Shown: positions 10,906 to 43,654, counted from the stretch's first letter. The stretch: DNA of 64,000 bases from Methanotrichaceae archaeon (GCA_963748825.1 CAVVKN010000009.1:160001-224000); one strand, 5' to 3'. Program-made: numbers and translations. The notes: generated by a model from the sequence alone, not told the origin.

Positions 10906-10909
10906 GATC

Positions 10910-12290
10910 TCACTTCTTCGCTGCGTACTTGGGGTGGTATAGCTTGATGTATTTGTCATCAATCCTGGTGAGCATTGCTTCCGGCAGGTCTGCCAGGAGA
11001 TCCCATCCGATCTGGAGGGTGTCAAAGATAGACCTATCCTCATCTCTGCCCTGATTGACGAATCTCTTCTCGAACTTATCTGCGAACTCCAGCACCAATT
11101 TATCGCGCTCTGAGAGAGCCTCCTTGCCGACGATGGCCGCGAGACCGCGCAGATCATTGCCCTCTGCATAGTAAGCATAGAGCTGATCCGATACTGCCCT
11201 GTGATCCTCGCGAGTGTGGCCCTTGCCGATTCCAGAGTTCATGAGGCGGGACAGCGAGGGGCGGATGTCGACGGGCGGATAGATGCCCTTTCTGTGCAGC
11301 TCTCGGGAAATCGAGGATCTGGCCCTCGGTGATGTACCCGGACAGATCCGGGATGGGGTGAGTGATGTCGTCGCCGGGCATGGTCAGGATGGGGAACTGG
11401 GTGATGGAACCCTTTCTGCCCTTGATGATTCCGGCCCTCTCGTACTGGATGGCCAGGTCTGTATACATGTATCCTGGATAGCCGCGTCGTCCGGGCACCT
11501 CTTCACGAGCAGCGCCCATCTGTCTGAGCGACTCGCAGTAGTTGGTCATGTCCGTGTAGATGATGAGCACGTGCATGTCCAGATCGAAGGCAAGATACTC
11601 AGCGGTGGTCAAGCCCAGCCTGGGTGTCAGAATCCTCTCTACGGCCGGGTCGTCGGCCAGGTTGAGGAACACCACTGCCCTCTCCAGAGCACCTGTTCTC
11701 TCGAAGTCAGCCAGGAAGTGCTGAGCCTCCTCGTTGGTGATGCCCATGGCGCAGAAGATAACTGCGAACGACTCGGCTTCGCCCAAGGCCTTGGCTTGCC
11801 TGGCAATCTGCAGAGCAAGGTCGTTGTGAGGCAGACCTGCACCGGAGAAGATAGGCAGCTTCTGGCCGCGCACCAGTGTGTTGGTGCCGTCGATGGTGGA
11901 GATGCCGGTCTGGATAAAAGCGCGCGGCTTCTCACGGGAAGCTGGATTGATGGCAGCTCCTGCAATATCTCTCAATACCTCTGGAACAATTTCCGGCCCG
12001 CCGTCTCTAGGCTTTCCGGATCCGGATAGAACGCGTCCCACAATGGCGGGAGACAGAGGCATCTTGATGACGTCTCCGGTGAAACTGACGGCAGAATCCT
12101 TGGACAGACCGCCGGTTCCCTCGAATACCTGGATAACCACGATCTCATCGGAGGAATCCAGCACCTGCCCTCTCTTCAGCTCTCCGCCCGTTCTGATCTC
12201 GACGAGCTCCATGTAGCCCACAGGCTCAGTCTTCTCTACGAAGAGGAGTGGTCCGGAGATCTCAGTAATAGTCTTGTATTCCTTTGTCAT
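10910..12290 (-). CDS. atpB: A-type ATP synthase subunit B, frameshifted near 11312
   Basis: [23 protein letters not shown] and ITEGQI motifs. Removing one base restores [27 protein letters not shown], joining ORF 10910..11242. Confidence 0.95.
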
Positions 12291-16293: not shown

Positions 16294-18336
16294 TCATGCT
16301 TTCAGGAACCTCCGGACATGTCCGAAGGGACTGTACTCCACTCCACCGCCATGTGCGCTGTAGAACTTCGTGAACATCTCCACATAATGCAACCTGAGAG
16401 GATGCATGAAGGGAGAGAGAATTCCCAGCAGGAAGTTGATGAAGTGCACTACGACCAGTATCATGACACCAACGATGATGGCAGGTATCGTGAACTCAGC
16501 GCTGTTGGTCGCTCCGCCGCTCAGCATGGGCATTATGACGTAGAAGGCCAGCTGGTTAGCAGCATACGCCAGACCCACCGAAGCAAGGCCGATGGCTAAT
16601 AACCTAAGATAGGATATTAGGTTGCTCACATAGAATGGCATGTGGGCAATGCTCATAGGCCCTTCCGGTCCCATTATCAGCATCACTATGGCGACTAAAA
16701 TTACGACAGCACTTGCAATTACCAACATCATCTGACCTATGACAAGTCCAAGCACAAGCAATCCAAAGAATATTTGGACGAGCATCACAGGAAATCTCTC
16801 GAAATAGGCATGCTTCTTCTCGCCGTAGGCCAGCTCCGTCTTGATGCCCAAGATAGAACCAACGCTGCAGTGAATAATGCCTATGATGACACTAGTACCG
16901 ATCAATAACAAAACCGCGTTACTTGCCAGCCGGTCCAGGGGGAAAATATCAATTCCCGGCCAAAATCCGATTCTTCCCAGCGAGCCAAAAACACCTTCAC
17001 CGAAATAGAGACCAGCCTGTTGTGCCATCTCCATCTCATGCTCGGATATGTGTCCCATGATCCTGCCCCATAGACCTAAGGGGCCAAAGATCTCGCCGAA
17101 GAATATGCCGAATATGATAGCCCACACGCTGGAAATCAAAACGACGTTGATCAACTGCTGCCAGCCAGGTGTTTTGAACTTCCTCTTCAGAAGCACCATA
17201 GTCAGAAACGCCATGACGCCATAGCCGATATCACCCAGAATCATGCCGAACATGATTGGGAAGAATACGAATATCAGCAATGACGGATCGAACTCCTTAT
17301 ACTCGGGAATGGCGAACATCCTTGTTACCAGTTCGTAAGGCTTGACCAGGCTGGGATTATCCATCTGGGTCGGTATGTCTTCGCCCTTCTCGACAAGTTC
17401 GTCTGTCTCTTTATCTGCGATCAACGAAACTTCAAGCTTGCCGCCAGCTGCGCTCTCCAGCTCGCTCTTGAGCCTGCTGAATTGATCTGCTGGAACATAC
17501 CCATCTATAACGAAGGCGTTGGCCGTCTCAGCAAACCTGAGTGGTACCTCTGTCTTCTGGGTCTGCATGGACAGAAACTCGTCCGTTGCCAGCATCAGAT
17601 CTTCATACTGCTTCTTCATGTCGGCAAGCTTCTTTTGGAGCGGCACTTTTTCGCCTTCCAAGGATTTGATGCTGCCTTCAAGAGTAGCAATCGCCGAATC
17701 TACATTGCCTTCCAGCCTGGGTACGGATGTCTCAGAAAACCCATGTTCGGAAAGGACTGAAGATACTTCGCCGGCCTTTTCCGCAGGCACAAATATTGCT
17801 ACAAAAGTTGCATTCTTGGCGCTTCCGGAATATACCTCATTTACAGGAGATACCCTCGCTACATCGGCATCAACTGGTGTTGTTGCTGTGCCGACAAAGG
17901 TCGCCAGAGAATCATAACCATAGTAAGCTTCTAAAGGCAGCGGCAAGACAGCCAAAGGAGTCAGAGACTTGATCTGATCCTGTTTGGACTTTACTTCTGC
18001 GTCGATGGCAACGATGCGCTCGTATGTAGTAGTAACATCCGCGCCGACGTTATTGAGAAGATTATCCAGCTCCGATAGAACCTGGCTCTCGGGATATGCC
18101 TTATCAGGAAACTTCTTATTTAGTGCAAGGTACCTGGTGACAGATCTGAGCTTAATAAGATCCTCGGAGTATTCTTTGGCTTTGCCAATGGGCTTGCCCA
18201 TCTCAAACTGAGGTTGGCTGCCATTATAGTTAACAATGTGGAGCAAGCGCAACTCATGCAGCTTTTCTACAACTGGAGATATTACGTTCTTTGACCCGGC
18301 GACGACTACACGACTCATCTTTACGGGTCTAAGCAT
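16294..18336 (-). CDS. atpI: A-type ATP synthase subunit I (a)
   Basis: MLRPVKMS, GDIGYG, SYLRLLAIGLA and HPLRLHYVEMFTKFY motifs. Confidence 0.97.
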   Translation of the reverse strand: MLRPVKMSRVVVAGSKNVISPVVEKLHELRLLHIVNYNGSQPQFEMGKPIGKAKEYSEDLIKLRSVTRYLALNKKFPDKAYPESQVLSELDNLLNNVGADVTTTYERIVAIDAEVKSKQDQIKSLTPLAVLPLPLEAYYGYDSLATFVGTATTPVDADVARVSPVNEVYSGSAKNATFVAIFVPAEKAGEVSSVLSEHGFSETSVPRLEGNVDSAIATLEGSIKSLEGEKVPLQKKLADMKKQYEDLMLATDEFLSMQTQKTEVPLRFAETANAFVIDGYVPADQFSRLKSELESAAGGKLEVSLIADKETDELVEKGEDIPTQMDNPSLVKPYELVTRMFAIPEYKEFDPSLLIFVFFPIMFGMILGDIGYGVMAFLTMVLLKRKFKTPGWQQLINVVLISSVWAIIFGIFFGEIFGPLGLWGRIMGHISEHEMEMAQQAGLYFGEGVFGSLGRIGFWPGIDIFPLDRLASNAVLLLIGTSVIIGIIHCSVGSILGIKTELAYGEKKHAYFERFPVMLVQIFFGLLVLGLVIGQMMLVIASAVVILVAIVMLIMGPEGPMSIAHMPFYVSNLISYLRLLAIGLASVGLAYAANQLAFYVIMPMLSGGATNSAEFTIPAIIVGVMILVVVHFINFLLGILSPFMHPLRLHYVEMFTKFYSAHGGGVEYSPFGHVRRFLKA

Positions 18337-18655
18337 GCAACAACCCCATGAACTCCTTTATCAAATATTCAACCGCTTTGTCCAGCTTTGCGCTGGCGCT
18401 GCCGCTCATTGAACTTACGTTCTTCTCACCGCTGTTAACGATCGATGCTTTCTTGGATTTCACATCGCTATCAGCTTTGGCAACGCTCTTGTCATAGTAG
18501 TCCTGTGCATCCGACTCGGCGGATTTGACAAGGTTTGCAGCTTCAGTAGTGGCAGCGGCTATCTTTTTTTCCTTCTCATCCAAGGCCCGCTGGACTGCTG
18601 CCTTGGCTTCAGCCTCTGCCGATTTAATTTTCGATAAGATATCGTCTCTAGCCAT
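18329..18655 (-). CDS. atpH: A-type ATP synthase subunit H
   Basis: 108-aa Ala/Lys/Glu-rich coiled coil; first gene of the operon. Confidence 0.85.
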   Translation of the reverse strand: MARDDILSKIKSAEAEAKAAVQRALDEKEKKIAAATTEAANLVKSAESDAQDYYDKSVAKADSDVKSKKASIVNSGEKNVSSMSGSASAKLDKAVEYLIKEFMGLLHA

Positions 18656-18757
18656 CTGATCCCTCTACTTCTTCCCTCACTACACCTCTTGCGTTTTTCA
18701 AACAGCGCTACATCACTTTAGGCTCGTGATAAACGTTCAGATCCATCCTCATCTACC

Positions 18758-18773
18758 AATATAAACTCTTCGG
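18758..18773 (-). promoter_or_regulatory. Archaeal BRE-TATA promoter of the atp operon
   Basis: The minus strand reads CCGAAGAG-TTTATATT about 100 nt upstream of atpH. Confidence 0.55.
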
Positions 18774-18810
18774 TTTTGATTTGAGGAGAGGCTAAGTATT
18801 ATCTTTCCTC

Positions 18811-19974
18811 TTAGGAACCCCAAAATCTCAAGGCTGTTTCCAGCTCTTTGTGGTCTTTTGCGTATTCTTTTAGGGGAATATGCTTCATCCAGGCATCCGT
18901 CGCCTGCACCATAGCCCTTGCACCGGCAGTAGTCCCATCGGGATGGCCGTGCACCCCTCCGCCTGCCTGGATGATGCAATCAATGCCATAGCCGTCCAAA
19001 TTTCCATGAACTTTGGCCGGATAGACCCCGCCCGAGGCCACCGGGAAGACTCTCTTGTAGCCGTGCCAATCTCCTCGCAGAGCATCACGGGAGAGGTCGT
19101 TTTCCTGGGTTTCGCGCGCCATCTTGCCCATGTAGCTTCCCGTATGCAAGTTGGTGCCCCCCGTCATGCGCACCAGCTTGGATATCACCAACATGGCAAT
19201 TCCGTGCCCTTTGTCTCTGGTAAAGGCACCGTGCATGGTTCTGTGAACATGTATGGGGACACTCATGTTCTTTGATAGAACCTCCAGTGCAGAAAAGCCG
19301 CTCGTCAGGACATCGATCATAACCATGTTGGCGCCATGATCTACGGCCTGCTCTGCGCGCTCCAGGATCTTATCGCAGTCGGCAGTGACATTCACCGCAT
19401 AGAATGCCTTCTTGCCCGTCTCCGTCTCCACTTTGTCCAAGGCGCTCATGACCGCCTCCAGCCTCGGGATGAGCGGGCAGAAGCTCTGATCGGTCAGTGT
19501 CTCGTCGTCTTTGACCAGGTCCAGTCCGCCGCGAACAGCCGCTGCTGCTACAGCCGCGGTGCCAGCCGGGTCCAAACCCACCTTGGGCTTGACGATGGTG
19601 CCAACCAATGGACGGCCATAAACTCCTAAGATTTTTCTTGCGTCTTCAATGCCGAAGCGAGGGCCTTTATGCGCAGCAAGCAGACTCTCCGGGAAGATGA
19701 CATCCTGCAGCCGTACCTTTTTCAGATCGCCCAGGCCGAATAGATTTCCCGCCACCACAGAGAGGTACTGAGGGATGTTTCCCGGCTCGAAAAGCTCCTC
19801 GGGAAAGCCGATCTCGACATTGCTGCCCTCTGCCAGGATCACCCTCGCCGCGAGGGGGTTGTCCTGGCCCCGCACCGCGGTCCAGGTGCCCGTGGACTGC
19901 TCTGCAGCTATAGCCTCCGCCGCTTTCTGAATGGGAAGGTCTGTTTCTACATGATATTTTGCAATCAGTTCCAT
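18811..19974 (-). CDS. rbcL: RuBisCO large subunit, form III
   Basis: AAEQSTGTW, GNLFG, KPKVG, GGLDLVKDDE, HVHRTMHG, LHTG..GKM, VASGG and QAGGG: the catalytic residues are retained, so this is not a RuBisCO-like protein. The likely start is the ATG at 19974. Confidence 0.92.
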   Translation of the reverse strand: MELIAKYHVETDLPIQKAAEAIAAEQSTGTWTAVRGQDNPLAARVILAEGSNVEIGFPEELFEPGNIPQYLSVVAGNLFGLGDLKKVRLQDVIFPESLLAAHKGPRFGIEDARKILGVYGRPLVGTIVKPKVGLDPAGTAAVAAAAVRGGLDLVKDDETLTDQSFCPLIPRLEAVMSALDKVETETGKKAFYAVNVTADCDKILERAEQAVDHGANMVMIDVLTSGFSALEVLSKNMSVPIHVHRTMHGAFTRDKGHGIAMLVISKLVRMTGGTNLHTGSYMGKMARETQENDLSRDALRGDWHGYKRVFPVASGGVYPAKVHGNLDGYGIDCIIQAGGGVHGHPDGTTAGARAMVQATDAWMKHIPLKEYAKDHKELETALRFWGS

Positions 19975-20188
19975 ACTACTGCTCCTGATGTCTATTCTCA
20001 GCCAGCTGGACCCTTCCGCCATCTGGATAATTCCTTCTCAAAATGACATCGAGTCTTCATTGGCCAATTCAGAGCATAGATGAGTCTCTGGCAGATATAA
20101 GAACTCCTGCCGGAGAGACTTAAGATTGTGTAGTCCCGAAACTATTGAGATAATATATCCATCACTGTGCATGGGAAAGAAGAATAAA

Positions 20189-20280
20189 ACCGGAACAACC
20201 GAGATTCAGCGGCCTCCGGTTTCCAGAACATGATCTATGACAGAAGAGGTTTCACTGCTGAGCTGCGGCAAAAATTATGG
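20189..20280 (+). repeat. Degenerate intergenic copy of part of the downstream aldolase gene
   Basis: CCGGTTTCCAGAACATGATCTATGACAG (28 nt) is identical at 20216-20243 and 22412-22439, with gapped similarity on both flanks. Confidence 0.85.
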
Positions 20281-20380
20281 AAAATTCTGGCAAACAGCAA
20301 TTAGAGGATGAAGCAGATTTTTTTCGGTACGGGGGGCAACATATTTATTATTAGAGAAAAACCTACAGACTGCCAAAAAA

Positions 20381-21334
20381 ATGTCAGGAGAATCTATGGG
20401 TGAAGGCATAAATGATCACACTCGATGCATCGTTGATCTGAGGCGCCACATGTGGATGGATGGCATCGAGGAGGAATTGCGGCGGCTAATCTGGCAGATT
20501 GCCGTGGTCGGCAAATATATTTCTGCAAAAATCCACGAATCCAACCGCAAGCTGGCCGGCTTCAAGAATGTTTACGGCGAGGATCAGTTGGCGCTGGACC
20601 GCATTTCCGACGACATATTGAAAAATATGCTACGGAACTCCGGATTTGTTCGCGAGTATGCCTCCGAGGAGCTCGAAGATATCGTCACCATCGGTCACGG
20701 GGAGGAAAAATATATTGTTACCGCCGATCCGGTGGACGGTTCTTCACTGGTAGATACTAATCTGGCCATCGGAACGATCATCGGCATCCACAAAAATTCA
20801 CTATTTGACACCGGCCGGAATTCAATGGTCGCCGCTCTTTATATTACTTACGGCCCGCTCATCACTATGATTTATTCGGCCGGAAAGGGGGTACATGAGT
20901 TTGTATTGGACCGCGAAGGAGAGTATGTCCTGTCCGAGGAAAATATCCGGCTCAAGGAGAAGGGGTCGATCTTTTCACCTGGCGGTCTGCGCAAGGACTG
21001 GACGGACAACCATCTGAAGTATATCGATAAGCTGGAGGCAGACGGCTACAAGCTGCGCTACAGCGGTGGGTTTGTTCCCGACATCAACCAGCTGATCATC
21101 AAGAGGGGGGGCATATTCACGTATCCTGCACTGAGGAAATCGCCCCAGGGGAAGCTGCGGTTGCTGTTTGAACTTCAGCCTATGGCCTTCATCGTGGAGC
21201 AGGCCGGCGGCAGGGCTACGGACGGGAAAGATGATATTCTTTCCCTCAAAGTGACGTCTGTTAATCAACGGTCACCCATCTACATCGGATCGTCTGCGGA
21301 AGTGGCAATGGCGGGGCAATTCCTCTCGCAATAA
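20381..21334 (+). CDS. fbp: Fructose-1,6-bisphosphatase class I
   Basis: ASEE, DPVDGSS, LRYSGGFVPD and GKLRLLFELQPMAF motifs. Confidence 0.93.
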   Translation: MSGESMGEGINDHTRCIVDLRRHMWMDGIEEELRRLIWQIAVVGKYISAKIHESNRKLAGFKNVYGEDQLALDRISDDILKNMLRNSGFVREYASEELEDIVTIGHGEEKYIVTADPVDGSSLVDTNLAIGTIIGIHKNSLFDTGRNSMVAALYITYGPLITMIYSAGKGVHEFVLDREGEYVLSEENIRLKEKGSIFSPGGLRKDWTDNHLKYIDKLEADGYKLRYSGGFVPDINQLIIKRGGIFTYPALRKSPQGKLRLLFELQPMAFIVEQAGGRATDGKDDILSLKVTSVNQRSPIYIGSSAEVAMAGQFLSQ

Positions 21335-21354
21335 ATACATTCAGAGGAGCAGCA

Positions 21355-22749
21355 ATGATTTACGAGAATAAGGATCAGCTAAAGAAAGGATGCAAATCCA
21401 TACTCGCCTATGACGGCAGTGATGTCCGTGTCTTGAATGAATCCAGGTTTCAGGAAAAGTTGATAGATGATTTAATCTATACGGTCGTTTTCAGTCCAGA
21501 CCCCGCAACTTCGCAGGCCGCAGGGTTTCTGATACGCCGGGGAGCAGCTTCGCTAGGAATCATGCAGGCGTCGATCCAATCCCTTTACGAAGCCATGGGC
21601 CGTAAGGAACTCGGCGGATTTACCGTTCCGGCAATCAATATCCGCGGCATTACCTACGATGTGGCGCAGGCAGTATTTCGCGGCGCGATCAAAGGGAATG
21701 TAGGGCCTGTTCTTTTTGAAATCGCCCGTTCGGAAATAGGCTATACAGAGCAAAGGCCGCTGGAATACACCTGTGCCGTGTTGGCGGCTGCTGTTAAATC
21801 CGGCTGGCGCGGCCCGGTATTTTTACAGGGCGATCATTTTCAGATAAACGCCAAAAAGTTCGCAGCGGACGCGGAAAAGGAAACTCAGACGGTTAAGGAT
21901 TTAATCAGGGAAGCGATTGTTGCCGGTTTTTACAATATCGACATCGATACATCTACACTGGTTGATCTGTCGCAGCCCACCGTCAAAGATCAGCAGAGAA
22001 CAAACTTTACGCTTGCTGCGGAGTTAACCACCATGATTCGCGATCAAGAGCCGGAAGGCATCACTGTGTCTGTGGGCGGCGAAATCGGCGAGGTTGGCGG
22101 CAAGAACAGCACTGTCGATGAATTGCAGGTTTTCATGAACGGTTATCTGGAAGAGCTTAAAAAGCGGGGCGAGGCGTTCAAGGGAATCAGCAAGATCAGC
22201 GTGCAGACCGGGACGACGCATGGCGGTGTGCCGCTGGCCGACGGTACGGTTGCGAAAGTCAAAATTGATTTTGACGTGCTGGCGAAACTGTCGGAAACCT
22301 CCCGTGCGCAATACGGTTTGTCCGGCGCCGTTCAGCACGGCGCTTCAACGCTGCCCGATGAGGCATTTGACCGCTTTCCCGCCACCGGAACGGCCGAGAT
22401 TCATCTGGCTACCGGTTTCCAGAACATGATCTATGACAGCAAAGCTTTCCCGGCGCAGCTGCGGGCAAAGATCTATGATCATCTGAAAGCCGACATGTTA
22501 GACGAATGGAAAGAGAAGGACACGGAAGAGCAGTTCATTTACAAAACCCGCAAGAAAGGCTTTGGACCGTTCAAACTGGAGCTGTGGCACCTGCCGACTG
22601 ATGTCCGCGATAAGATCTGCGCCGAGCTGGAGAGGCAATTCGCCTTTTTATTTGATAAGCTCAAAGTCAACGGCACCCGACCTATCCTGGATCAATTCAT
22701 CAAGCCGGTTGATGTGCCGCTGAAAATGCCCACGGCGCTGAAAGACTGA
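21355..22749 (+). CDS. Class II (metal-dependent) fructose-bisphosphate aldolase family protein, long form
   Basis: VPAINIR, LQGDH, GGEIGEVGG, QTGTTHGG and VQHGAS motifs. Confidence 0.85.
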   Translation: MIYENKDQLKKGCKSILAYDGSDVRVLNESRFQEKLIDDLIYTVVFSPDPATSQAAGFLIRRGAASLGIMQASIQSLYEAMGRKELGGFTVPAINIRGITYDVAQAVFRGAIKGNVGPVLFEIARSEIGYTEQRPLEYTCAVLAAAVKSGWRGPVFLQGDHFQINAKKFAADAEKETQTVKDLIREAIVAGFYNIDIDTSTLVDLSQPTVKDQQRTNFTLAAELTTMIRDQEPEGITVSVGGEIGEVGGKNSTVDELQVFMNGYLEELKKRGEAFKGISKISVQTGTTHGGVPLADGTVAKVKIDFDVLAKLSETSRAQYGLSGAVQHGASTLPDEAFDRFPATGTAEIHLATGFQNMIYDSKAFPAQLRAKIYDHLKADMLDEWKEKDTEEQFIYKTRKKGFGPFKLELWHLPTDVRDKICAELERQFAFLFDKLKVNGTRPILDQFIKPVDVPLKMPTALKD

Positions 22750-22772
22750 AGCAATCGCAGAGTGACGCCATT

Positions 22773-22836
22773 AAGAAAGCGGCTATATTGGAGAAAAGTA
22801 CTGATGTTCCGGAAAATTCTCGGCCGCTTTCTTTTA
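22773..22836 (+). terminator. Inverted repeat followed by a T-tract after the aldolase gene
   Basis: AAGAAAGCGGC (22773-22783) pairs with GCCGCTTTCTT (22823-22833), followed by TTA. Confidence 0.45.
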
Positions 22837-23134
22837 TGAAAATCCACGGCCCTGTCCCAGGTGATAGTCAGATTTAATTTTCGTGTTTCCGTCTATCTGA
22901 AGCTGAATTGGATGCGGGACTCAAAGAACTCCTCGCTATATTCGATAAAGCTGGAAGCTACCCAAAGGGCAGAGGAGCAGATCAAGATCAAATCCCTGGA
23001 TGTATCGAAAAGGAGTATATAAAGTCCAAACACTCAGGACTGCACACGATTAGGCTTAAGACTCAAAAGCCATAATATAACACTTAATAAAGACAATCTG
23101 CGATATTCGCCAAAGGGCATCAGATGGGATTGAG

Positions 23135-24250
23135 ATGACAAAGATAACAATCAGCCTTATAAAGGCCGATGTGGGCGGCTATCCCGGCCACTCCTCGGTC
23201 CATCCCGCATTGATCGAGACTGCGGAGTCGAAACTCGAACAGGCCAAGAAGTCCGGCGCACTGATAGACTTTAGAGTGCTTGCCTGCGGCGATGACCTGG
23301 AGCTTCTCATGAGCCACAAGAAGGGCTGCGACAACGGCGAGGTGCATGCTCTGGCCTGGGAGACCTTCGAAGAGGCCACTGAGGTTGCCAAGAAGCTAAA
23401 GCTCTACGGTGCCGGGCAGGACCTTTTGGCGGACGCCTTTTCCGGCAACATTCGCGGTATGGGACCGGGCGTGGCGGAGATGGAGATCAATGAGCGCACC
23501 AGCGAACCGGTGGTCGCTTTCATGATGGACAAGACCGAGCCAGGGGCCTTCAATCTGCCCATCTTCAAGATGTTCGCCGACCCCTTCAACACCGCCGGCC
23601 TGGTGATAGATCCCGCCTGCCACCACGGCTTCACCTTTGAGGTCTGGGATATTCAGGAGCACAAGAAGGTCTTCATAGACTGTCCTGGAGAGATGTACGA
23701 CCTGCTGGCTCTCATTGGCGCGAAGAGCCGCTATGTGATCAAGAGGATCTTTTGCAAGCCGAACAGCAAGATCTCCGAGCAGGAAGCTGTGGCCGTAGTG
23801 AGCACGGAGAAGCTGTACCAGACAGCGGGAACATACGTTGGCAAAGATGATCCCGTGGCTCTGGTGCGCTGCCAGTCTGGCCTGCCTGCCTTGGGAGAGG
23901 TGCTGGAGCCCTTCGCGCTGGGGCACCTGGTAAGCGGATGGATGCGCGGCAGCCACAACGGCCCCCTCATGCCCTGCTCTTTTGAGACAGCTCATCCCAC
24001 CCGGTTTGACGGCCCGCCCAGAGTTATTGCCGCCGGCTTCCAGATGGCATACGGAAACTTCGTGGGTCCCGTCGATCTCTTCAAAGATGTGGCCTTCGAC
24101 CTGACAAGGCAGAGGTGTCTGGAAATCACTGATTACATGAGGGCGCACGGCCCCTTCGAACCGGCGCGTCTTCCCATGGAGGATATGGAGTACACCACGC
24201 TCCCCCATGTCATGAAAGTCCTGGCGAAAAGGTTTGTGAATGTGGAATAA
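23135..24250 (+). CDS. Bifunctional fructose-1,6-bisphosphate aldolase/phosphatase (class V FBPase)
   Basis: IKADVGG, CGDD, YGAGQDLL, DKTEPGAFN, YVGKDDP, GWMRGSH and MEYTT motifs. Confidence 0.96.
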   Translation: MTKITISLIKADVGGYPGHSSVHPALIETAESKLEQAKKSGALIDFRVLACGDDLELLMSHKKGCDNGEVHALAWETFEEATEVAKKLKLYGAGQDLLADAFSGNIRGMGPGVAEMEINERTSEPVVAFMMDKTEPGAFNLPIFKMFADPFNTAGLVIDPACHHGFTFEVWDIQEHKKVFIDCPGEMYDLLALIGAKSRYVIKRIFCKPNSKISEQEAVAVVSTEKLYQTAGTYVGKDDPVALVRCQSGLPALGEVLEPFALGHLVSGWMRGSHNGPLMPCSFETAHPTRFDGPPRVIAAGFQMAYGNFVGPVDLFKDVAFDLTRQRCLEITDYMRAHGPFEPARLPMEDMEYTTLPHVMKVLAKRFVNVE

Positions 24251-24351
24251 CTGCTTCGCGAACATTATTTTATTTTCATCTAAGAAATTTATTATAATTT
24301 TTGCCAAAGCCAATACAGATCGCAATGATAGGCATGCAACGGGTGAACGTG

Positions 24352-25236
24352 ATGAACCTCCCTGAAAGTGATGTTAGGCTTTTTTTCCGTCTGTATCATT
24401 CATTATTACTTTATGTGAATAACAGATATAAAATTCTGGAAGGCCTGCATCGCCCGATAGATCTTCATAAATTGGATCTCGATGATCTGCAAAAGTTGAA
24501 GGATAGATTGTATGGCTCTCCTGACCTGATCGACTCTTTTGTCAAGGATAATCCGGAGAATCTCGCATCCGGGGAGCTAGAAATTGTATTAACCTGGAAG
24601 AATTTTGTCAGGGGCAGGTTCTATATCGTTCGCCATCTGAAGAATTTCACAGTATTCCTAGATTCTAGCCGTCCACCCAGGGCATATGGGGTACTGGGTA
24701 TTATCTCTTCTCTTGAGGAGATGATGGGTCCAAGTCTGCCGAAAATAGTTACTGCTACTCTCCTTCCGCTTAAAAACCAGATCATATATGACGGAACACT
24801 GTCGTCTTTCAATATCATATTTGGTAGTGGCATACGCAGGAACATCGACGACTCTTATCGCCAGGCTAAAAGCATGGGAATAATTACGACTCTGCCCGTA
24901 TCTTCGGAAGATTTCAAATCGGACGATTCCGAGATACTGAGAGGACATCTAAAAACCGAATATAGCAGGGACGTGCATCATGAGGAAATACGGGAACTAA
25001 TCGGCAAAAATCCCGACCTCATAGTCGTATATTGTGAAGAGATGGGCAAGGTTCATGCGAGAGCTTATAGAAAAAGTTTGAAAGCTGCGGGCATAGTTGA
25101 GGGCTGGTTTGCCCTGATTGATGGGATGATAATTGCCGGTGGAAAAACGCAGGAAGAGGTTGAAAGAATTTTGAAGTCTTTGCTGCCCCCTGAGAAGATA
25201 AAGCTTGTTTACATTTTCCATCTAAACGCGAAATGA
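24352..25236 (+). CDS. Hypothetical protein
   Basis: Long open frame of about 295 aa, AT-richer than its neighbours; no confident motif. Confidence 0.75.
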   Translation: MNLPESDVRLFFRLYHSLLLYVNNRYKILEGLHRPIDLHKLDLDDLQKLKDRLYGSPDLIDSFVKDNPENLASGELEIVLTWKNFVRGRFYIVRHLKNFTVFLDSSRPPRAYGVLGIISSLEEMMGPSLPKIVTATLLPLKNQIIYDGTLSSFNIIFGSGIRRNIDDSYRQAKSMGIITTLPVSSEDFKSDDSEILRGHLKTEYSRDVHHEEIRELIGKNPDLIVVYCEEMGKVHARAYRKSLKAAGIVEGWFALIDGMIIAGGKTQEEVERILKSLLPPEKIKLVYIFHLNAK

Positions 25237-25403
25237 TCCGCCACTTAGCGCGTCTGTCAAGCACAAGCGAAGCACAGAGATAACGACCGTCCAAATTCCT
25301 GATATCTTCCCGCATCAATATCCCAGACCACCAAGCCTGCGGCTTTTATAGTTTGGCTACTAATAGATAAGAAAAGTTATTCTTGCCGGGAGTGGATCAT
25401 GAG

Positions 25404-25919
25404 ATGATAGAGAGCCAGGCTGCAGAAGAGATAGAAGAAGCAGAGGTCAGGCCAGCCCTTGAGCCAGTCGAGAAAGATGCGGCCACGCCAGCGAAGCCCA
25501 GGAAGCTCCGCCGCCTCAAGGTAGCCCATCCCGAGCGCTGCATCGGCTGCCTGGGCTGCATGTTCGCTTGCAGCCGGATTCGTACTGGAACGGTCTCCCT
25601 GCAGAACAGCGCCATCAAGGTGCAGACGCAGGGCGGAATTGAAGGCGACTTTCGCGTGGTGGTCTGCCGCGGATGCAGCGACCCCCCCTGTGCCCGGGCT
25701 TGCCCCACGGGTGCCATGGAGAAGAGGCCGGACGGCAGGGTGGTCTTCCACAAAGAGCTATGCACCGGCTGCGGCAACTGCGAAAAGGCCTGCCTGATAG
25801 GTGCGATCTCTCTTGGCAAGGAGAAAATGCCCATCAAATGCATACACTGCGGTGCCTGCGTGGACTTCTGCCCGCATGGCGTGCTCGAGCTTGAGGAGGT
25901 TCCCGTTTCGGGAGGATGA
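25404..25919 (+). CDS. Polyferredoxin (four [4Fe-4S]) partner subunit of an AOR-family enzyme
   Basis: CIGCLGCMFAC, CRGCSDPPCARACP, CTGCGNCEKAC and CIHCGACVDFCP; the stop overlaps the next gene (ATGA). Confidence 0.9.
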   Translation: MIESQAAEEIEEAEVRPALEPVEKDAATPAKPRKLRRLKVAHPERCIGCLGCMFACSRIRTGTVSLQNSAIKVQTQGGIEGDFRVVVCRGCSDPPCARACPTGAMEKRPDGRVVFHKELCTGCGNCEKACLIGAISLGKEKMPIKCIHCGACVDFCPHGVLELEEVPVSGG

Positions 25920-27658
25920 AAATGCTGCGAAAGGTTTTGTACATCGATCTGTCCAGAGGAGAGTCCTGGGCGGAGGAGAAGCAGGAGCTCTTCGAGAACT
26001 GGATGGGTGGAACGGGCGTGGGAATAAAGCTCCTCCAGGAGGAGTGCCCCGCTGGCACCGACCCGCTCTCGCCCCAGGCGCCCATAATCCTGTCCATCGG
26101 CCCATTGAACGGCATCTTTCCCGTAGCCACCAAGACTGTGGCCACCTTTAAATCGCCCCTTACTGGTGAATTTGGCGAATCCTATGCAGGAGGCAGGCTC
26201 TCTTTAGCCTTGAGGTTTGCCGGGCACGAAGCAGTGGTCATCCGCGGCCAGGCAGAGCAGCCTTCTTACATCTCCATTAACGATTCAGATGTAAAGATCA
26301 AGGATGCCACATCGATCTGGGGCATCGATGCTCAGACGACAGGCGTGATCCTGCGCGATCGCGAGAGCGGCGTAGGTCGCAGGTCTATCATTCGCATCGG
26401 CCCGGCTGGAGAGGCCGGGGTAAGATACGCGGGAGTGGTGGTGGACACCTACCGTCACTTCGGGCGACTGGGCCTTGGCGCGATCTTCGGCTCCAAGAAA
26501 CTCAAAGCCATGGTGATCTCGGGAACGGAGACGATCGATGTTCCGGATATCAAGCGTTACAAAGAGATCTACAATCGGCTCTACAAGACCACGGTGCAGA
26601 CGGATGTCATGGAGAAGTACCATGATCTCGGAACTTCGGTGAACATCAACGTCCTCAACTGGCTCAAGGGACTGCCTACCAAAAACTTCGTTCTATCCAG
26701 CTTTCCGGAAGGCGAAAAGATCAGTGGGGAGATGTTCGCGGAGAACCAGCTCTTCCGCAGGCTCTCATGCGCCGGATGCCCCATCGGTTGTGTGCATATC
26801 GCCTCTCTGAAGACGGCCTTTTCCAAGCATCACGAATTCGAGGTAAGAAAGGTCTCCTACGATTACGAGCCCATCTATTCCCTGGGATCTAACCTTGGTG
26901 TCGGCTCAGCTGACGGAGTCTTGCAGCTGATCGATGTCTGCGAGAGGTTGGGCCTGGATGTCATGTCGGCGGGAGTGGTCCTCTCCTGGGCCACCGAGGC
27001 TCTGGAAAAGGGGCTCATCACCAGCAAAGATACAATGGAGGTGCCGCTGCAGTGGAACGGCGTGGAAGGCTACACAAGAGCATTGGAGAACATAGCCAGG
27101 GCCCCCAATGAGTTCTACGCCGCTCTTGCCCGGGGCGTAGACTATGCCGCGAAAAAGTACGGCGGCGTGGAGTATGCCATGGCGTTAGGAGGTAACGAGG
27201 TCTCCGGTTACCATACCGGTCCTGCCTCCATCGTGGGCCAGTTGGTGGGCGTGCGCCACTCTCATCTGGACAACGGAGGATATGCTATCGACCAGAAGGC
27301 AGTCAAAAAGCCCATGGACGCAGAGACGATGGTCGATGAGATCATCAAAGAGGACAATTCCCGCGGCGTCTTCAACTCCCTGGTGGGCTGTTTGTTCGCC
27401 CGCGGAGTTTACACCGAGGAGAACATCATCGACTCTTTGGGAGCGGTGGGCATCTGGAAGACAAAGGAAGATCTTCAGGAGCTGGGCAAAAGAATCTTCG
27501 AAGAGAAATATAAATTCAAGGTCCAGGAGGGTTTCGACCTCTCCCGCGCCCGCATTCCCAAGAGGTTCTATGAGACAGTCTCTTCCGCGGGATTGGTAAC
27601 GCCTGAAACGGTAGAGGAGATGCTCAGGCTTTACCGGAAGAAGAGAGGCTGGAGCTAG
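25916..27658 (+). CDS. W/Mo aldehyde:ferredoxin oxidoreductase family large subunit (GOR/XOR-like)
   Basis: KSPLTGEFGESYAGG, IGPAGE, RHFGRLGLGAIFGSKKLKA, SCAGCPIGC, DYEPIYSLG, GLDVMSAG and CLF motifs. Family assignment is firm; the subgroup is from recall. Confidence 0.9.
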   Translation: MKMLRKVLYIDLSRGESWAEEKQELFENWMGGTGVGIKLLQEECPAGTDPLSPQAPIILSIGPLNGIFPVATKTVATFKSPLTGEFGESYAGGRLSLALRFAGHEAVVIRGQAEQPSYISINDSDVKIKDATSIWGIDAQTTGVILRDRESGVGRRSIIRIGPAGEAGVRYAGVVVDTYRHFGRLGLGAIFGSKKLKAMVISGTETIDVPDIKRYKEIYNRLYKTTVQTDVMEKYHDLGTSVNINVLNWLKGLPTKNFVLSSFPEGEKISGEMFAENQLFRRLSCAGCPIGCVHIASLKTAFSKHHEFEVRKVSYDYEPIYSLGSNLGVGSADGVLQLIDVCERLGLDVMSAGVVLSWATEALEKGLITSKDTMEVPLQWNGVEGYTRALENIARAPNEFYAALARGVDYAAKKYGGVEYAMALGGNEVSGYHTGPASIVGQLVGVRHSHLDNGGYAIDQKAVKKPMDAETMVDEIIKEDNSRGVFNSLVGCLFARGVYTEENIIDSLGAVGIWKTKEDLQELGKRIFEEKYKFKVQEGFDLSRARIPKRFYETVSSAGLVTPETVEEMLRLYRKKRGWS

Positions 27659-32370: not shown

Positions 32371-33561
32371 ATGTCTGAAGAATGTGCAACGATCGCGATT
32401 ATCGGCCTAGGCAATGCCGGGCTGCCGTTAGCTGCAGTTGTGGCAGACAGCGGTATTAAGGTCATGGGCGTGGACATTAATGAAGAGCGCTGCCGGCTGA
32501 TTAACAGTGGGGAAAATCCCATTCCCGAGGAAGCGGGCTTAGAAGAGCTTATCAAACTGCACGGTGGCAAGCAGCTCGTGGCAACTCCCCGATTCGAGGA
32601 TGCGAGAAGCTGCCAAACCTTCATAGTGATTGTGCCTGTCTTTGTGGACGGCGGCAATAATCCCGACTTCTCAATTATGCAGAAAGCACTCCATTCTCTG
32701 GGCAGGATCCTGAAAAAGGGAGATCTGGTGGTTTTGGAGACGACTTTTCCGCCGGGAACTACAGAGGGCATGGCGGCAAGCCTGCTATGTGAGTCGAGCG
32801 GCCTTTCTGAGAGCGACTTTTTCCTGGCCTATTCACCAGAGAGAATAATGACCGGCTATAGTCTCTCGCGACTCCGGGAATTTCCCAAAGTGATCGGCGG
32901 CAGGGACGAAGAGAGCGGGATAGTTGCCTATCAGGTCTATAAAAAATTCATCTGCAACCTTCATCTGGTCTCCTCGGCCAAAGTGGCGGAGATGATCAAG
33001 GTCATGGAGGGCTGCTATCGCGATGTAAATATCGCTTTGGCCAATGAACTCTTCAAAATTTGCCGGGATCTTGGGATCGACTTTTTCGAGGCAAGAGAGA
33101 AGGCCAACCACCAGTTCTGCCACATTCACCTGCCCTCCACCGGCGTAGGCGGCCACTGCATTCCTGTATACCCCTGGTTTCTCATAAAAGAGATGGAAAA
33201 GAGAGAGCACTTCAGCAATTGCCGCTTGCTCTGTGTCTCGCGAGAGGTCAACGACGAGATGATCCGCTACTGGGCGGAAAGAATATTGCTGGAGTGCATG
33301 AAAATCAACAAGCCGCTTCTAAGCATTAAGATCTGCATCAAGGGCATAACTTTCCGGGCGGGTGTCAAAGAGTTCTATCATAGCCGCAACCTGGGCCTGG
33401 TGAGATTGCTGGCCGACAAAGGGCTGGATGTCTATGTCGCCGATCCTCTTCTCACCCGGGATGAAGTGATAGGAAAAGGCCTTCGATATATCAAACCTGA
33501 AGAGTCTGATTTGATCTTCGACCCCTTTGAACTGAAATTTGATATGTCAGGAATAAATTGA
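32371..33561 (+). CDS. Nucleotide-sugar 6-dehydrogenase (WbpA/WecC-like)
   Basis: GLGNAGLP, YSPER, YRDVNIALANE and GVGGHCIP motifs. Confidence 0.92.
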   Translation: MSEECATIAIIGLGNAGLPLAAVVADSGIKVMGVDINEERCRLINSGENPIPEEAGLEELIKLHGGKQLVATPRFEDARSCQTFIVIVPVFVDGGNNPDFSIMQKALHSLGRILKKGDLVVLETTFPPGTTEGMAASLLCESSGLSESDFFLAYSPERIMTGYSLSRLREFPKVIGGRDEESGIVAYQVYKKFICNLHLVSSAKVAEMIKVMEGCYRDVNIALANELFKICRDLGIDFFEAREKANHQFCHIHLPSTGVGGHCIPVYPWFLIKEMEKREHFSNCRLLCVSREVNDEMIRYWAERILLECMKINKPLLSIKICIKGITFRAGVKEFYHSRNLGLVRLLADKGLDVYVADPLLTRDEVIGKGLRYIKPEESDLIFDPFELKFDMSGIN

Positions 33562-33572
33562 GGAGAAGTTCA

Positions 33573-34658
33573 ATGAAGATAGCATCGATAGTTGGCGCCA
33601 GGCCGAACTTCATCAAATTGGCACCATTATCCAGGGAGCTGAGAAGACGGGGACTTGATGAAGTAATAATTCACACCGGTCAGCATTATAACTATGAGAT
33701 GGACAAGATATTCTTCGATGACATGGGCATACCGGCCCCTGATTACCACATGGGAATAGGCTCGGGCAGTCATGGCTTTCAGACGGGAGAGATGCTGAGG
33801 AAGGTGGAGGAGGCTCTCGTGGCTGAGAAGCCGGATGCGGTTATAGTCTTCGGCGACACCAACTCCACCCTGGCAGGAAGCCTGGCGGCTGCAAAGCTGC
33901 ATATCAAGAGCGCTCATGTCGAGGCAGGTCTCAGATCCTTTGACAAGCGCATGCCCGAGGAGATCAACCGAGTGCTTGTGGACCATTGCTCCGATTTGCT
34001 GCTCTGTCCGACCAAGACTGCCGTGGACAACTTAAGAAGAGAGGGCATAACAAAGAATGTTTATCTGACAGGAGATGTGATGGTGGATGCGCAAAAGGAT
34101 TGCGAACGGATTGCCGAGAATAAATCACATATCCTGGAAGACCTGGAACTTTCGCCCAACGATTACTACTTGGCCACTGTGCACAGGGCATCGAACACTG
34201 ATGACCCGGACAAACTCAGAGCGATCACAGAGGCGCTCAAAGATCTGGAAAATGTGGTCTTTCCCTGCCATCCCAGAGCCGAGAAATATCTGAGAGAATT
34301 TGGCCTGTGGGACGATCTGATCAGGAAGATCGAGGTGATCAAGCCGGTGGGGTATCTGGACATGCTCCTCCTGGAGAAGAACGCCAAAAAGATAATCACC
34401 GACTCGGGCGGCGTGCAGAAGGAAGCCTATCTGCTGGGTATTGCCTGCATAACTCTGAGAGACGAAACTGAATGGGTGGAAACAGTAGAGGATGGGTGGA
34501 ATGTTCTTGTTGGCCCGAACCGGGAGAAGATCATTTCATTAGCCAGATGCTTTGAGCCCAGCCATGAGCGTCAGGATGTATTCGGAAAGGGCGATGCAAG
34601 CATCAAGATCGTGGATTTGGTGGAAAACATTTTGCATGAAAAAACAGGTGGATCTTGA
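33573..34658 (+). CDS. wecB: Non-hydrolysing UDP-N-acetylhexosamine 2-epimerase (WecB/WbpI-like)
   Basis: GARPNFIK, HTGQHY, GDTNS, HVEAGLRS, PEEINR and TDSGGVQKEA motifs. Confidence 0.93.
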   Translation: MKIASIVGARPNFIKLAPLSRELRRRGLDEVIIHTGQHYNYEMDKIFFDDMGIPAPDYHMGIGSGSHGFQTGEMLRKVEEALVAEKPDAVIVFGDTNSTLAGSLAAAKLHIKSAHVEAGLRSFDKRMPEEINRVLVDHCSDLLLCPTKTAVDNLRREGITKNVYLTGDVMVDAQKDCERIAENKSHILEDLELSPNDYYLATVHRASNTDDPDKLRAITEALKDLENVVFPCHPRAEKYLREFGLWDDLIRKIEVIKPVGYLDMLLLEKNAKKIITDSGGVQKEAYLLGIACITLRDETEWVETVEDGWNVLVGPNREKIISLARCFEPSHERQDVFGKGDASIKIVDLVENILHEKTGGS

Positions 34659-35650
34659 AAGTACTTCTTTTAGCCAATCAGCCGGAGAGGACCACGCGGC
34701 TGAATATGTTCGCGGGCACTCTCAAATCCCAGGGACATGAGGTGATCATTCCCAGTTTCGGCACAAAAAATTGGATCAGAATTGCCGGATTGGCGAAGAA
34801 GATCGCAAAAGAGAGGAAACCTGATGTGGTCCATATCTTTAACGTTCCCGATGTGATTTATCACAACTTTGCGAAGCTGCGGGGCCAAGGCTTCCGAAAG
34901 CTAATCTACGACTACAGGTCTCCCTGGGGCATTGAGCTTGCTCAGACCTTCGGCGCGCCTGGTAGGATACTTGCCGAGCACTTTGAAAGAGAACTGGCAA
35001 ATTCTGCAGATGTCATCACTACAGTCAACGAGCCTCTCGGAAGAAAAGTGCAGGGTTATGCCCCCGATAAGAAAGTTCAGGTGATTCCCAACTATCCTCA
35101 TCGTTCTTTCTGCACAAAAGGGGCAAAGATCGATAGCCAGGAATTTGCGATCGAGCCGGGAAGAGAGCCCATTGTATTCATAGGACGCATCTGCACCCAG
35201 GAGGGGATTGGAAAGCTTCTGGAGGTTGCCCGGGCAATACCCGAACGGGAGTTTTGGATTGTGGGCAGTGGGCCTTTTGCCGATTGGTATCTCTGGAGAA
35301 AGCCCGGTAATGTTAAGAACCTGGGCTGGCAGCCACATGAGAAAGTTGCAGCCCTAATTAACAATGCCAGGCTCTGCCTGATTCCACGTGAGGAGGACGC
35401 GCTCACCCCCTATTCCACGGACAAGAGCGTCTGGAAGCTCAATGAGTACCTGGCCATGGGGAAGGTGGTAGTGGCATCCGGCGTGACCATGGTGGAAAAG
35501 AGAAAGAACCTGGTGATTGTGAAGGCAGAAAAGCTGGAGGAGGCGGTACGGGAGAATCTCATGCGAGAGCCTGAGAGGCTCTTGGCAGAGGATTACAGGT
35601 TCTGGGATGGGAACGACCAGATTATCAGAGAGGTTTACGAGAGCCTTTAG
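34655..35650 (+). CDS. Glycosyltransferase (GT-B, GT4-like)
   Basis: FIGRI, WIVGSG and KLNEYLAMGKVVVAS motifs. Confidence 0.8.
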   Translation: MKVLLLANQPERTTRLNMFAGTLKSQGHEVIIPSFGTKNWIRIAGLAKKIAKERKPDVVHIFNVPDVIYHNFAKLRGQGFRKLIYDYRSPWGIELAQTFGAPGRILAEHFERELANSADVITTVNEPLGRKVQGYAPDKKVQVIPNYPHRSFCTKGAKIDSQEFAIEPGREPIVFIGRICTQEGIGKLLEVARAIPEREFWIVGSGPFADWYLWRKPGNVKNLGWQPHEKVAALINNARLCLIPREEDALTPYSTDKSVWKLNEYLAMGKVVVASGVTMVEKRKNLVIVKAEKLEEAVRENLMREPERLLAEDYRFWDGNDQIIREVYESL

Positions 35651-36169
35651 AACGATAAGTTCAAGGATAACGTTTTGCATCTTTCCAAGATCGGAGATCT
35701 AAAGGTTTGGTTGCATAGGAAAGTTGAAGGAACCATTAAGAGGCTGACCATAAGAAGATCAGCTACCAAAAAATGGTATGTCTCATTCTTGGTAGAAGAT
35801 GCACCCAAAGATGCCGTACCAGATTCCGAGAAAGCAGTAGGCATTGACGTGGGGATATCCAATTTTGTCGTTCTGTCAGATGGTACTTTTGTAGCAAACC
35901 AAAGATATCTAGCAGCTTGTGAAGAGAAACTTTCCACGGAACAAAGCAAGAAAGATAAACTCCCCCATAGATCACCAGAACGCAAGAAAGCTGCCAAGAA
36001 AGTCAGTCATATCTATGAACGACTTGGTAATCTCAGAGATAACTTTGCTCACCAACTCAGCCATCAGATAGTGAACGATTATGACATAATCTGCCTGGAA
36101 GATATAGATATCAAGAATCTTATCGAAAAGAAACCTTACATGACCAAGAGCGTGCTGGATGCAAGCTGG
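35651..36169 (+). mobile_element. tnpB: IS200/IS605 TnpB remnant, truncated at both ends
   Basis: LSKIG, KWYVSF, RuvC-I AVGIDVG, FAHQLS and RuvC-II ICLEDIDIKNL, ending at VLDASW. The N-terminal HTH, zinc finger and RuvC-III are absent. Confidence 0.88.
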
Positions 36170-36222
36170 AAGAAAAAAAAATGGCCTGCTAATTTTGAGC
36201 GGCTCAGCAAAAAAAGGAGACC

Positions 36223-39227: not shown

Positions 39228-39382
39228 ATCTATCACAGCCTGGATATCTAGAACTGATACATCAAGCACGGCTTGCTTTAGATCTTTTCGGTCAATAATT
39301 CTCAAAAAATATGAATAGAGATGAACAGGCCCAGGCTTTTATAGGAGCAGCTAATAAAACAGCAGGCGAGACGAAAGATAAG

Positions 39383-40504: not shown

Positions 40505-40556
40505 ATTCTCTTGGCCAGGAATTGGAGGCGGAAAGCCTCTGTGAGTGGCAATTTTG

Positions 40557-43651: not shown

Positions 43652-43654
43652 ATA

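Follow-up and report, generated by a model that had tools for sequence, protein, structure and literature searches.

We analysed a stretch of 64,000 nt from a Methanotrichaceae archaeon (GCA_963748825.1, CAVVKN010000009.1:160001-224000), called the window in the following, with a focus on positions 18,811 to 27,658. This region carries rbcL, the gene for a carboxylase/oxygenase of ribulose 1,5-bisphosphate (RuBisCO), and next to it a core of three genes: a bifunctional fructose-1,6-bisphosphate (FBP) aldolase/phosphatase (FBPA/P) is followed by WorS, a polyferredoxin, and by WorL, a member of the aldehyde:ferredoxin oxidoreductase (AOR) family. The arrangement of this core is more than chance. 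We tentatively propose, with a confidence somewhat short of even, that WorS and WorL (together WorSL) act with ferredoxin at the step between 3-phosphoglycerate (3-PGA) and glyceraldehyde 3-phosphate (GAP), most likely in the reductive direction. An earlier note on this DNA had described seven genes within 9 kb, with rbcL divergent from the others, and had read them as one ferredoxin-linked route for the RuBisCO product. Domain library scans recovered all seven genes in their places and on their strands, and the overall interpretation is partly supported. The apparent cluster consists of four layers, namely the core (FBPA/P, WorS and WorL in this order), the RuBisCO, a cassette of two genes and an insert.

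The family was evaluated in 40 relatives from 16 genera, which are not independent of one another; 40 stretches from 33 of them were inspected for gene order. FBPA/P and the AOR gene are located on one contig and one strand within 3 kb or less in 26 of the 40 relatives. The conserved block reads AtpI <- AtpH <- RbcL / FBPA/P -> polyferredoxin -> AOR / <- 245-aa orphan / GlmU -> aminotransferase -> oxidoreductase. Two more relatives (G010, G023) carry decayed copies in place and three have no orthologue (G001, G014, G028); in those left over it is rearranged (genus g6, G039) or interrupted by contig ends. Elsewhere in the phylum, too, FBPA/P, polyferredoxin and AOR gene stand in this order, in two or more places that are phylogenetically separate. 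Given this recurrence, a coincidental clustering, which had been left open at first, is very improbable for the core. Synteny across Methanotrichaceae, proposed as a check of the earlier reading, is thus seen for the core in 26 of 40 relatives and fails for the cassette (6 of 33) and for the hypothetical gene (2 of 33).

Outside the family, related units are built from slightly different parts. In G055, a genome of family f7, FBPA/P is followed by triose-phosphate isomerase (TIM; 303 bits, cut-off 132), WorS and WorL, with 0-5 nt between neighbours. G077 of the same family carries these four genes together with an inserted ArsA gene, and the spacing in G066 is the same as in G077. G099 (f16) has the order S10, FBPA/P, WorS, WorL. 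The locus L095 from a Methanocellales metagenome-assembled genome shows this arrangement too, and the two were counted once because they may represent the same genome. In G375 (f6) a second FBPA/P copy, 72% identical to the other copy of that genome, is located 84 nt upstream of WorS. Transfer of a ready-made fbp-worSL cassette into G375 was considered and is not supported: the linked FBPA/P is 58-73% identical to the copies of f1, f7 and f16, and the WorL of G375 nests among unlinked f6 rows in a quick tree. On the WorL tree described below, the label "linked to FBPA/P" needs five changes, at least three of which are forced by well-supported branches, with f7 standing apart.

A further partner is seen in f6: in 12 of the best 30 loci of phosphoribulokinase (PRK), its gene immediately precedes WorS-WorL. 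The gaps from prk to worS to worL are 11-210 nt, and the linked PRKs reach 290-301 bits with NF005655 (cut-off 236). In three genera every sampled member shows the linkage (g71 3/3, g105 2/2, g70 7/7); PRK is unlinked to WorSL in the remaining 18 loci, which come from six genera. The observation of prk-worS-worL refers to the f6 loci L147, L153, L176, L177, L179-L183, L187, L189, L194, L196-L198 and L207. Neither RuBisCO nor FBPA/P occurs within 10 kb of prk-worSL at the two loci G150 and G142. The connection of the AOR pair to the RuBisCO, triose-phosphate and FBP segment, as drawn in the earlier note, is supported: the pair forms operon-like units with FBPA/P, with FBPA/P plus TIM, or with PRK elsewhere. 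As separate observations, a GpsA-type glycerol-3-phosphate dehydrogenase gene is convergent to worL in two f6 genomes (L144:1951-3036, L145:4738-5751), and a glpX FBP phosphatase (FBPase) gene is convergent to worL in Caloramator australicus (L109:11801-12757).

These linkages bear on the simplest explanation, a neighbourhood without functional meaning that consists of inherited Methanotrichaceae gene order and a few chance juxtapositions. The family block indeed includes an unrelated ATP synthase operon, the 245-aa orphan, GlmU and sugar-nucleotide genes, and in genus g6 the three parts are dispersed with no gene lost. However, WorSL is independently linked in f7 (with TIM), in f16, in G375 and in three genera of f6 (with PRK), which occupy separate branches in the tree of WorL. 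Their gaps are tight or overlapping, and all partners belong to one short metabolic stretch. We consider a meaningless neighbourhood very improbable.

The product of worL matches AFOR_N (223.0 bits) and AFOR_C (223.4 bits), both far over the cut-offs, and worL is the sole AOR-family gene of this genome. Its closest solved match is the Pyrococcus furiosus AOR (1aor, 268 bits) with a full-length alignment; other solved matches are 9mqx, 9g7j and 8c0z. The alignment to 1aor_A assigns C285, C288, C292 and C492 as cluster cysteines. T240, E318, Y432 and H450 correspond to the second-shell Thr, Glu313, Tyr427 and His448 of the P. furiosus enzyme, a criterion taken from what is described in PMC12096430 and PMC13328260. 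Cluster cysteines and second-shell residues are invariant or nearly so across the clade alignment.

WorS contains four Cys motifs and matches the Fe-S subunits of solved complexes of AORs and tungsten-type oxidoreductases (WORs), namely 9mqx_E, 8c0z_C and 6x6u_B. By eye, its N-terminus is acidic and of low complexity and has an RR pair with no hydrophobic stretch behind it. Translation may in fact begin with the ATG at 25401. The start of worL overlaps the stop of worS by 4 nt. Domain library scans of the window revealed no flavoprotein gene adjoining worSL. A WorL with an adjacent WorS of four [4Fe-4S] clusters is described as Class II WOR by Putumbaka et al. 2026 (PMC13328260). WorSL is a predicted cytoplasmic two-subunit Class II tungsten-type oxidoreductase.

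An exhaustive HMMER search returned 17 clade representatives (clustered at 50% identity) with 376-699 bits and 35-54% identity; the next matches drop to 334 bits or less and ~33% identity. The phylogenetic tree was built as a quick IQ-TREE run with 63 rows, comprising 58 chosen clade rows (the majority of the linked lineages together with unlinked ones) and five intended outgroup representatives. One of the latter, P0145, was placed inside the clade, which therefore has 59 rows, and the support of the WorL clade is 100 (SH-aLRT). Comparing 73 clade members with 103 generic AORs yields a clade signature of SYDYE, YHTG in place of Y-D-P-R and RHSH in place of G-G-x-H. A generic Arg is replaced by Gly435 and a generic Gly by His448. 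R94, R156, R160, K234, H236 and R483 are basic residues specific to the clade in the same comparison. The remodelled surroundings of the active site suggest a distinct substrate, and by its sequence WorL appears to represent a distinct, uncharacterised Class II WOR clade. A search of the ESM Atlas returned generic AOR clusters only. The clade is broad and includes many anaerobic bacteria; its members belong to Bacillota, Chloroflexota, Thermodesulfobacteriota, Methanosarcinaceae, Methanocellales and further groups. No Caldicellulosiruptor record is included in the best 80 of 568 relatives. In the phylum of the window the clade is present in 139 of 401 genomes, being near-universal in f1 (10/12), f7 (4/4) and f13 (50/54), and in f2 it occurs in 16 of 52. 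In 55 of 80 clade loci, WorS occupies position -1 relative to WorL.

WorSL might alternatively be a broad-range aldehyde detoxifier, acting on methylglyoxal or labile by-products of triose phosphates, that came to its place for this purpose or by chance. In favour of this, the P. furiosus AOR mentioned above as the closest solved match has a broad range, and PMC13328260 assigns the detoxification of aldehydes to most characterised WORs. The clade is moreover common among fermenting Bacillota and other groups, where none of its metabolic neighbours is conserved, and some Methanothrix can seemingly dispense with WorSL. Against this stands the low identity to generic AORs of only ~33%, together with clade-specific residues around the second shell. 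Recruitment at least three times beside FBPA/P, TIM and PRK specifically would also be unexpected for a detoxifier. We regard this explanation as unlikely.

The interconversion of 3-PGA and GAP is the sole step among the reactions of RuBisCO, PRK, TIM and FBPA/P that is fit for an aldehyde:ferredoxin enzyme, and it is therefore the step proposed for WorSL. FBPA/P and PRK are described as one-way anabolic enzymes (PMC12525153, PMC5241800). As they occur in tight units with WorSL, we infer that the reductive direction is favoured. WorSL would convert 3-PGA to GAP at the expense of two reduced ferredoxins, and FBPA/P, plus TIM where present, would pull GAP irreversibly into fructose 6-phosphate. 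In Methanothrix the 3-PGA could be derived from RuBisCO or from gluconeogenesis starting with acetate, and acetate cleavage supplies highly reduced ferredoxin. WorSL may thus offer Methanothrix an ATP-free route parallel to phosphoglycerate kinase (PGK) and an enzyme of the glyceraldehyde-3-phosphate dehydrogenase (GAPDH) type. Reduction of unactivated acids by AOR-type enzymes with low-potential donors has been reported (PMC9295118, PMC6365974, PMC12727526), and the hydrolysis of FBP is estimated at -14 to -30 kJ/mol (PMC12525153). Owing to highly reduced ferredoxin and the pull of TIM and FBPA/P, the reduction could be feasible. It is conceivable, though rather doubtful, that this applies to the whole clade, which would then represent a ferredoxin-dependent 3-phosphoglycerate reductase for anaerobic archaea, organised in fbp-(tpiA)-worSL and prk-worSL units.

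The genome (94.9% complete) was searched for the enzymes around this step. As the earlier note had advised, prk and pgk were looked for and both are present, PRK being encoded outside the window with 296 bits. TIM is present as well, and an AMP phosphorylase reaches 742 bits. With PRK and AMP phosphorylase both encoded, RuBisCO could serve either a PRK route or an AMP route. The search for gap and for the hexulose-phosphate genes gave a mixed result. Hexulose-6-phosphate synthase (HPS) passes its cut-off (216 bits, cut-off 200), whereas 6-phospho-3-hexuloisomerase (PHI) reaches only 59.9 bits with a cut-off of 160. No canonical GAPDH was detected, as Gp_dh_C is without match in this genome, and none of 41 family genomes has a GAPDH that passes a curated cut-off, the archaeal GAPDH equivalog included. 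The sole GAPDH relative here is a divergent protein of 384 aa (86.8 bits, cut-off 185), which retains the active-site motif SCNTT. In the family this GAPDH-like protein is type-II-like, 384-394 aa long and scores 87-108 bits (G000:C19:8971-9594, L005:1072-2226); some Methanotrichaceae genomes carry two or three copies of the divergent gene. In the sample of the phylum, archaeal GAPDH over the cut-off is lacking in several families (f1 0/12, f7 0/4, f13 0/54, and f20, f28 and f30 0/3 each), and f7 and f13 carry type-I GAPDH (Gp_dh_C).

The idea that WorSL must replace a missing GAPDH is ruled out as a general rule by this type-I GAPDH and by the near-universal PGK. In f7 all four genomes encode RuBisCO and none PRK, so that a link to WorSL would there concern gluconeogenesis rather than a PRK cycle. 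A route through non-phosphorylated glyceraldehyde was considered too and is unlikely; PMC2063504 reports no glycerate kinase in M. thermophila.

Several observations weigh against a reductive 3-PGA/GAP enzyme. First, of the 401 genomes sampled from the phylum 395 encode PGK, including those of f1 (12/12), f7 (4/4) and f13 (54/54). Type-I GAPDH is present in f7 and f13 and the divergent gene with SCNTT in Methanotrichaceae. As PGK and GAPDH-type genes persist, no genome requires a bypass. The conventional PGK/GAPDH route is probably available everywhere and WorSL at most a parallel one; the "PGK-independent" redox step of the earlier note is hence not forced. Second, the oxidation of GAP with ferredoxin is estimated at ~-26 kJ/mol (PMC12525153), so that the opposite reaction would call for ferredoxin in a very reduced state and for a strong pull. 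The characterised enzymes of this kind, GAP:ferredoxin oxidoreductase (GAPOR) and glyceraldehyde-3-phosphate oxidoreductase (GOR), are described as working in the oxidative direction only (PMC12525153, PMC13328260). Third, over 80 clade loci from many phyla WorS is the sole conserved neighbour, and most members from f6, f2, f4 and f13 have unrelated neighbours. Synteny in the family reaches unrelated genes (ATP synthase, GlmU) and therefore reflects in part plain vertical conservation. Fourth, a WorL orthologue was not found in G001, G014 and G028 among the 40 relatives, and G010 and G023 carry a decayed worSL in place. Hence WorSL is dispensable for some Methanotrichaceae. Substrate, direction and physiological role of WorSL are read from genomic context and are to be taken as such.

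As a side observation on this decay, several stops and frame breaks make worL and worS pseudogenes in genus g10, in both of the genomes sampled (G010:C19:14267-16049; G023:C24, C6).

The direction of the reaction could also be the opposite. A GOR-like WorSL would oxidise GAP to 3-PGA and yield reduced ferredoxin, either in glycogen breakdown or in a "GAPOR cycle" with PGK and GAPDH, in which ATP and NAD(P)H are spent for low-potential ferredoxin, e.g. for CO2 reduction. Every characterised GAP:ferredoxin enzyme oxidises GAP, and the GOR of Caldicellulosiruptor bescii (CbGOR) is likewise a heterodimer of WorL and WorS (PMC13328260). A GAPOR cycle has been demonstrated in Methanococcus maripaludis (PMC3585446), and glycogen is stored by Methanothrix (PMC12525153). 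WorSL occurs alongside PGK and a GAPDH-type gene, and some strains carry a reversible class II aldolase in the cassette at the same locus. On the other hand, a GAP oxidiser co-expressed with the one-way anabolic FBPA/P and PRK would be expected to drain their substrate. Moreover, no glycolytic kinase and no PGK or GAPDH gene adjoins WorSL in the loci examined. An oxidative WorSL therefore has, in our estimate, a small probability, and we retain the reduction of 3-PGA as working model.

RuBisCO, the second layer, matches Pfam RuBisCO_large (264.9 bits) and RuBisCO_large_N (74.5 bits). Its motifs EQSTGTWT, GNLFG, KPKVG, KDDE, HVHRTMH, HTGS..GKM, ASGG and GGGVHGHP align to a solved archaeal RuBisCO. 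Both domains of the large subunit and all catalytic and activation residues are present, including the Lys of KDDE that is carbamylated. The protein is ~25-40 residues shorter than the solved archaeal enzymes. Of the description as a catalytically intact form III enzyme, the intact motifs stand, while the match to the NCBIfam type III model TIGR03326 (397.1 bits) is under the cut-off of 497.45.

The position of rbcL was compared in the relatives as well. RbcL adjoins FBPA/P in 25 of 33 relatives, and the spacer between both genes measures ~160-440 bp in those without the cassette. A distance of ~155 nt separates the gene from the A-type ATP synthase genes ahaH-ahaI, which follow downstream on the same strand (window 18329-20022; relatives' loci L010-L049), and it adjoins ahaH/ahaI in all loci of relatives in which both sides can be seen. 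In genera g6 and g13, where the block is broken, RbcL remains with the ATP synthase and the polyferredoxin-AOR pair with GlmU. The closest partner of RuBisCO is the ATP-synthase operon, not FBPA/P, and RuBisCO may be transcribed together with the A-type ATP synthase. G016 (genus g16; G016:C26:81800-83062, L042) differs in that rbcL is gone from the conserved site; a different RuBisCO, 41-44% identical, is encoded elsewhere and away from the ATP synthase.

Features of the locus in window coordinates, with the basis of each assignment
Feature	Position	Strand	Basis
rbcL, form III-type RuBisCO large subunit, 403 aa	18811..20022	-	domains and catalytic motifs
Divergent intergenic region between rbcL and the plus-strand genes, 358 bp	20023..20380	.	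coordinates
Class I fructose-1,6-bisphosphatase (FBPase), cassette gene 1	20381..21334	+	library matches
Class II (metal-type) ketose-bisphosphate aldolase family protein, 464 aa, cassette gene 2	21355..22749	+	weak Pfam match
Bifunctional FBP aldolase/phosphatase (FBPA/P), gene 1 of the conserved core	23135..24250	+	NF041126
Orphan open reading frame, 311 aa, low-GC strain-level insert outside the conserved unit	24301..25236	+	relatives' loci
WorS, polyferredoxin small subunit, four [4Fe-4S]-type Cys motifs	25383..25919	+	motifs and solved complexes
WorL, predicted tungstopterin-type AOR-family catalytic subunit, 580 aa; candidate 3-PGA/GAP:ferredoxin oxidoreductase	25916..27658	+	domains, clade

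FBPA/P passes the curated equivalog NF041126 with 574.1 bits (cut-off 520). The two genes of the cassette, which the earlier note had counted among the members of the locus, turned out to be a laterally shared, bacterial-type cassette. It is found in 6 of 33 relatives, and frame breaks split the copy of G018. The 464-aa aldolase matches Pfam F_bP_aldolase weakly (61.5 bits, cut-off 25.5) and stays far under the cut-off of every NCBIfam equivalog; sources name close proteins class II FBP aldolase, and the metal-site motifs DH, THG and HG are present by eye. It is 87-90% identical to proteins labelled Smithellaceae, and the FBPase is 83-93% identical to proteins labelled Syntrophales, Syntrophaceae or Smithellaceae. 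Smithellaceae, Syntrophaceae and Syntrophales are syntrophic partners of Methanothrix. Due to the identity of 83-93% to Syntrophales-labelled proteins the cassette is considered a bacterial-type element shared across domains and not an old part of the locus. Between genera of the family it is 90-93% conserved, with flanking genes at ~80% identity. Some of the bacterial-labelled matches are located on contigs of 54-167 kb or on chromosomes of bacterial size. These data suggest a recent inter-domain transfer into the rbcL-fbp spacer, although short contigs may be mis-binned.

The 311-aa orphan open reading frame (ORF) lies within a GC trough (0.45, compared with ~0.54) and gives no family match with Pfam, NCBIfam, PADLOC or PHROGs; the latter two returned nothing for either of the two orphan ORFs. 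It is found in only two of 33 relatives (G033, G001) at 57-58% identity and is seemingly a fast-evolving insert that separates fbp from worS in this strain.

Contigs from RNA libraries (4 runs, 4 studies, strains 90-99% similar) cover rbcL, the cassette, FBPA/P, worS and worL. One single contig spans the worS/worL junction and another one the region from the aldolase to FBPA/P. No RNA-library contig covers 24419-25020 within the orphan ORF, which is not evidence of absence. As the contigs carry no strand or single-transcript information, which weighs against our proposal as well, and DNA carry-over is possible, they give weak support for expression of the locus.

Two observations concern the window outside this region. 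The atpB ORF (window 10210-12290) matches only positions 1-325 of the 458 of its model, and the following ORF (subunit D) has ~95 extra N-terminal residues; a frame break or an assembly error may be present in atpB. At 35675-36295 a fragment of 206 aa matches positions 126-289 of the 360-position model of the IS200/IS605 TnpB RNA-guided endonuclease. It sits within a region for sugar-nucleotide and pseudaminic-acid biosynthesis (32371-51418).

If 3-PGA is indeed reduced by WorSL, one ATP would be saved per triose in organisms living near the thermodynamic limit, e.g. the acetate-splitting Methanothrix. Gluconeogenesis and the RuBisCO/PRK-based reductive hexulose-phosphate (RHP) pathway would gain an ATP-free reduction step, and ferredoxin would take the place of ATP and NAD(P)H in the reduction phase of the RuBisCO pathway. 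The energy balance drawn up for archaeal RuBisCO pathways would change, and WorSL would be the first anabolic GAP/3-PGA:ferredoxin enzyme. Should the function extend to the clade, the beneficiaries would be Methanothrix, two further families and three genera of the PRK-bearing family. A defined physiological role is given for only five of 92 WOR clades in PMC13328260. In the literature searched on AOR or GAPOR in Methanothrix/Methanosaeta and on FBPA/P with AOR, which left most subscription journals outside, no paper was found that suggests the link described here.

Among characterised enzymes, CbGOR (Class II WOR, clade 20) resembles WorSL in being a heterodimer of WorL and WorS with ferredoxin as carrier (PMC13328260), and both keep all four second-shell residues, as described for CbGOR in PMC12096430. 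Since heterodimer and second-shell residues are common to many Class II clades, they are not diagnostic of membership in the GOR clade. The substrate couple proposed for WorSL (GAP/3-PGA) is the same. In contrast, CbGOR is bacterial, glycolytic and oxidative, whereas the partners of WorSL are anabolic (FBPA/P, TIM, PRK, RuBisCO). Two supplementary tables of PMC13328260 contain no entries for Methanothrix, Methanosaeta or C. bescii.

The archaeal GAPOR of P. furiosus and M. maripaludis (Class I WOR, clade 23) is AOR-family and ferredoxin-linked like WorL. It acts, as WorSL is proposed to do, on GAP/3-PGA without 1,3-bisphosphoglycerate. GAPOR is however described as monomeric, without WorS, ~20% identical to AORs and devoid of the conserved Tyr/His region (PMC12096430, PMC6365974), and its homologues are reported almost only from Thermoprotei, Thermococci and Methanococci (PMC12525153). 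WorL differs by its WorS partner, its full-length alignment to 1AOR and the retained Tyr432 and His450. The earlier note had made its reading conditional on the AOR-family protein being a GAP:ferredoxin oxidoreductase; an assignment to the archaeal GAPOR clade was rejected. WorL is set apart from GAPOR by the description of the latter, and no solved GAPOR structure is among the nine AOR-family sequences with structures that were found.

The AOR of P. furiosus, AorABC of A. aromaticum and the clostridial AOR have fold and cofactor set in common with WorL by prediction, and this group of AORs sensu stricto is documented to reduce carboxylic acids when low-potential donors are supplied. Their substrates are unphosphorylated aliphatic or aromatic compounds. 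WorL is separated from them by an identity of ~33%, a clade of its own and a different neighbourhood of the active site.

At the level of the pathway, the genome analysed here resembles the RHP pathway of Kono et al. 2017 (PMC5241800), as RuBisCO, PRK, PGK, FBPA/P and HPS are also encoded. The PRKs of two Methanosaeta species are described as active in that work, and RHP transcripts were reported in M. concilii by Yang et al. 2019. The published scheme uses PGK and GAPDH to proceed from 3-PGA to GAP (PMC5241800), whereas here a ferredoxin-dependent enzyme is proposed to operate in parallel.

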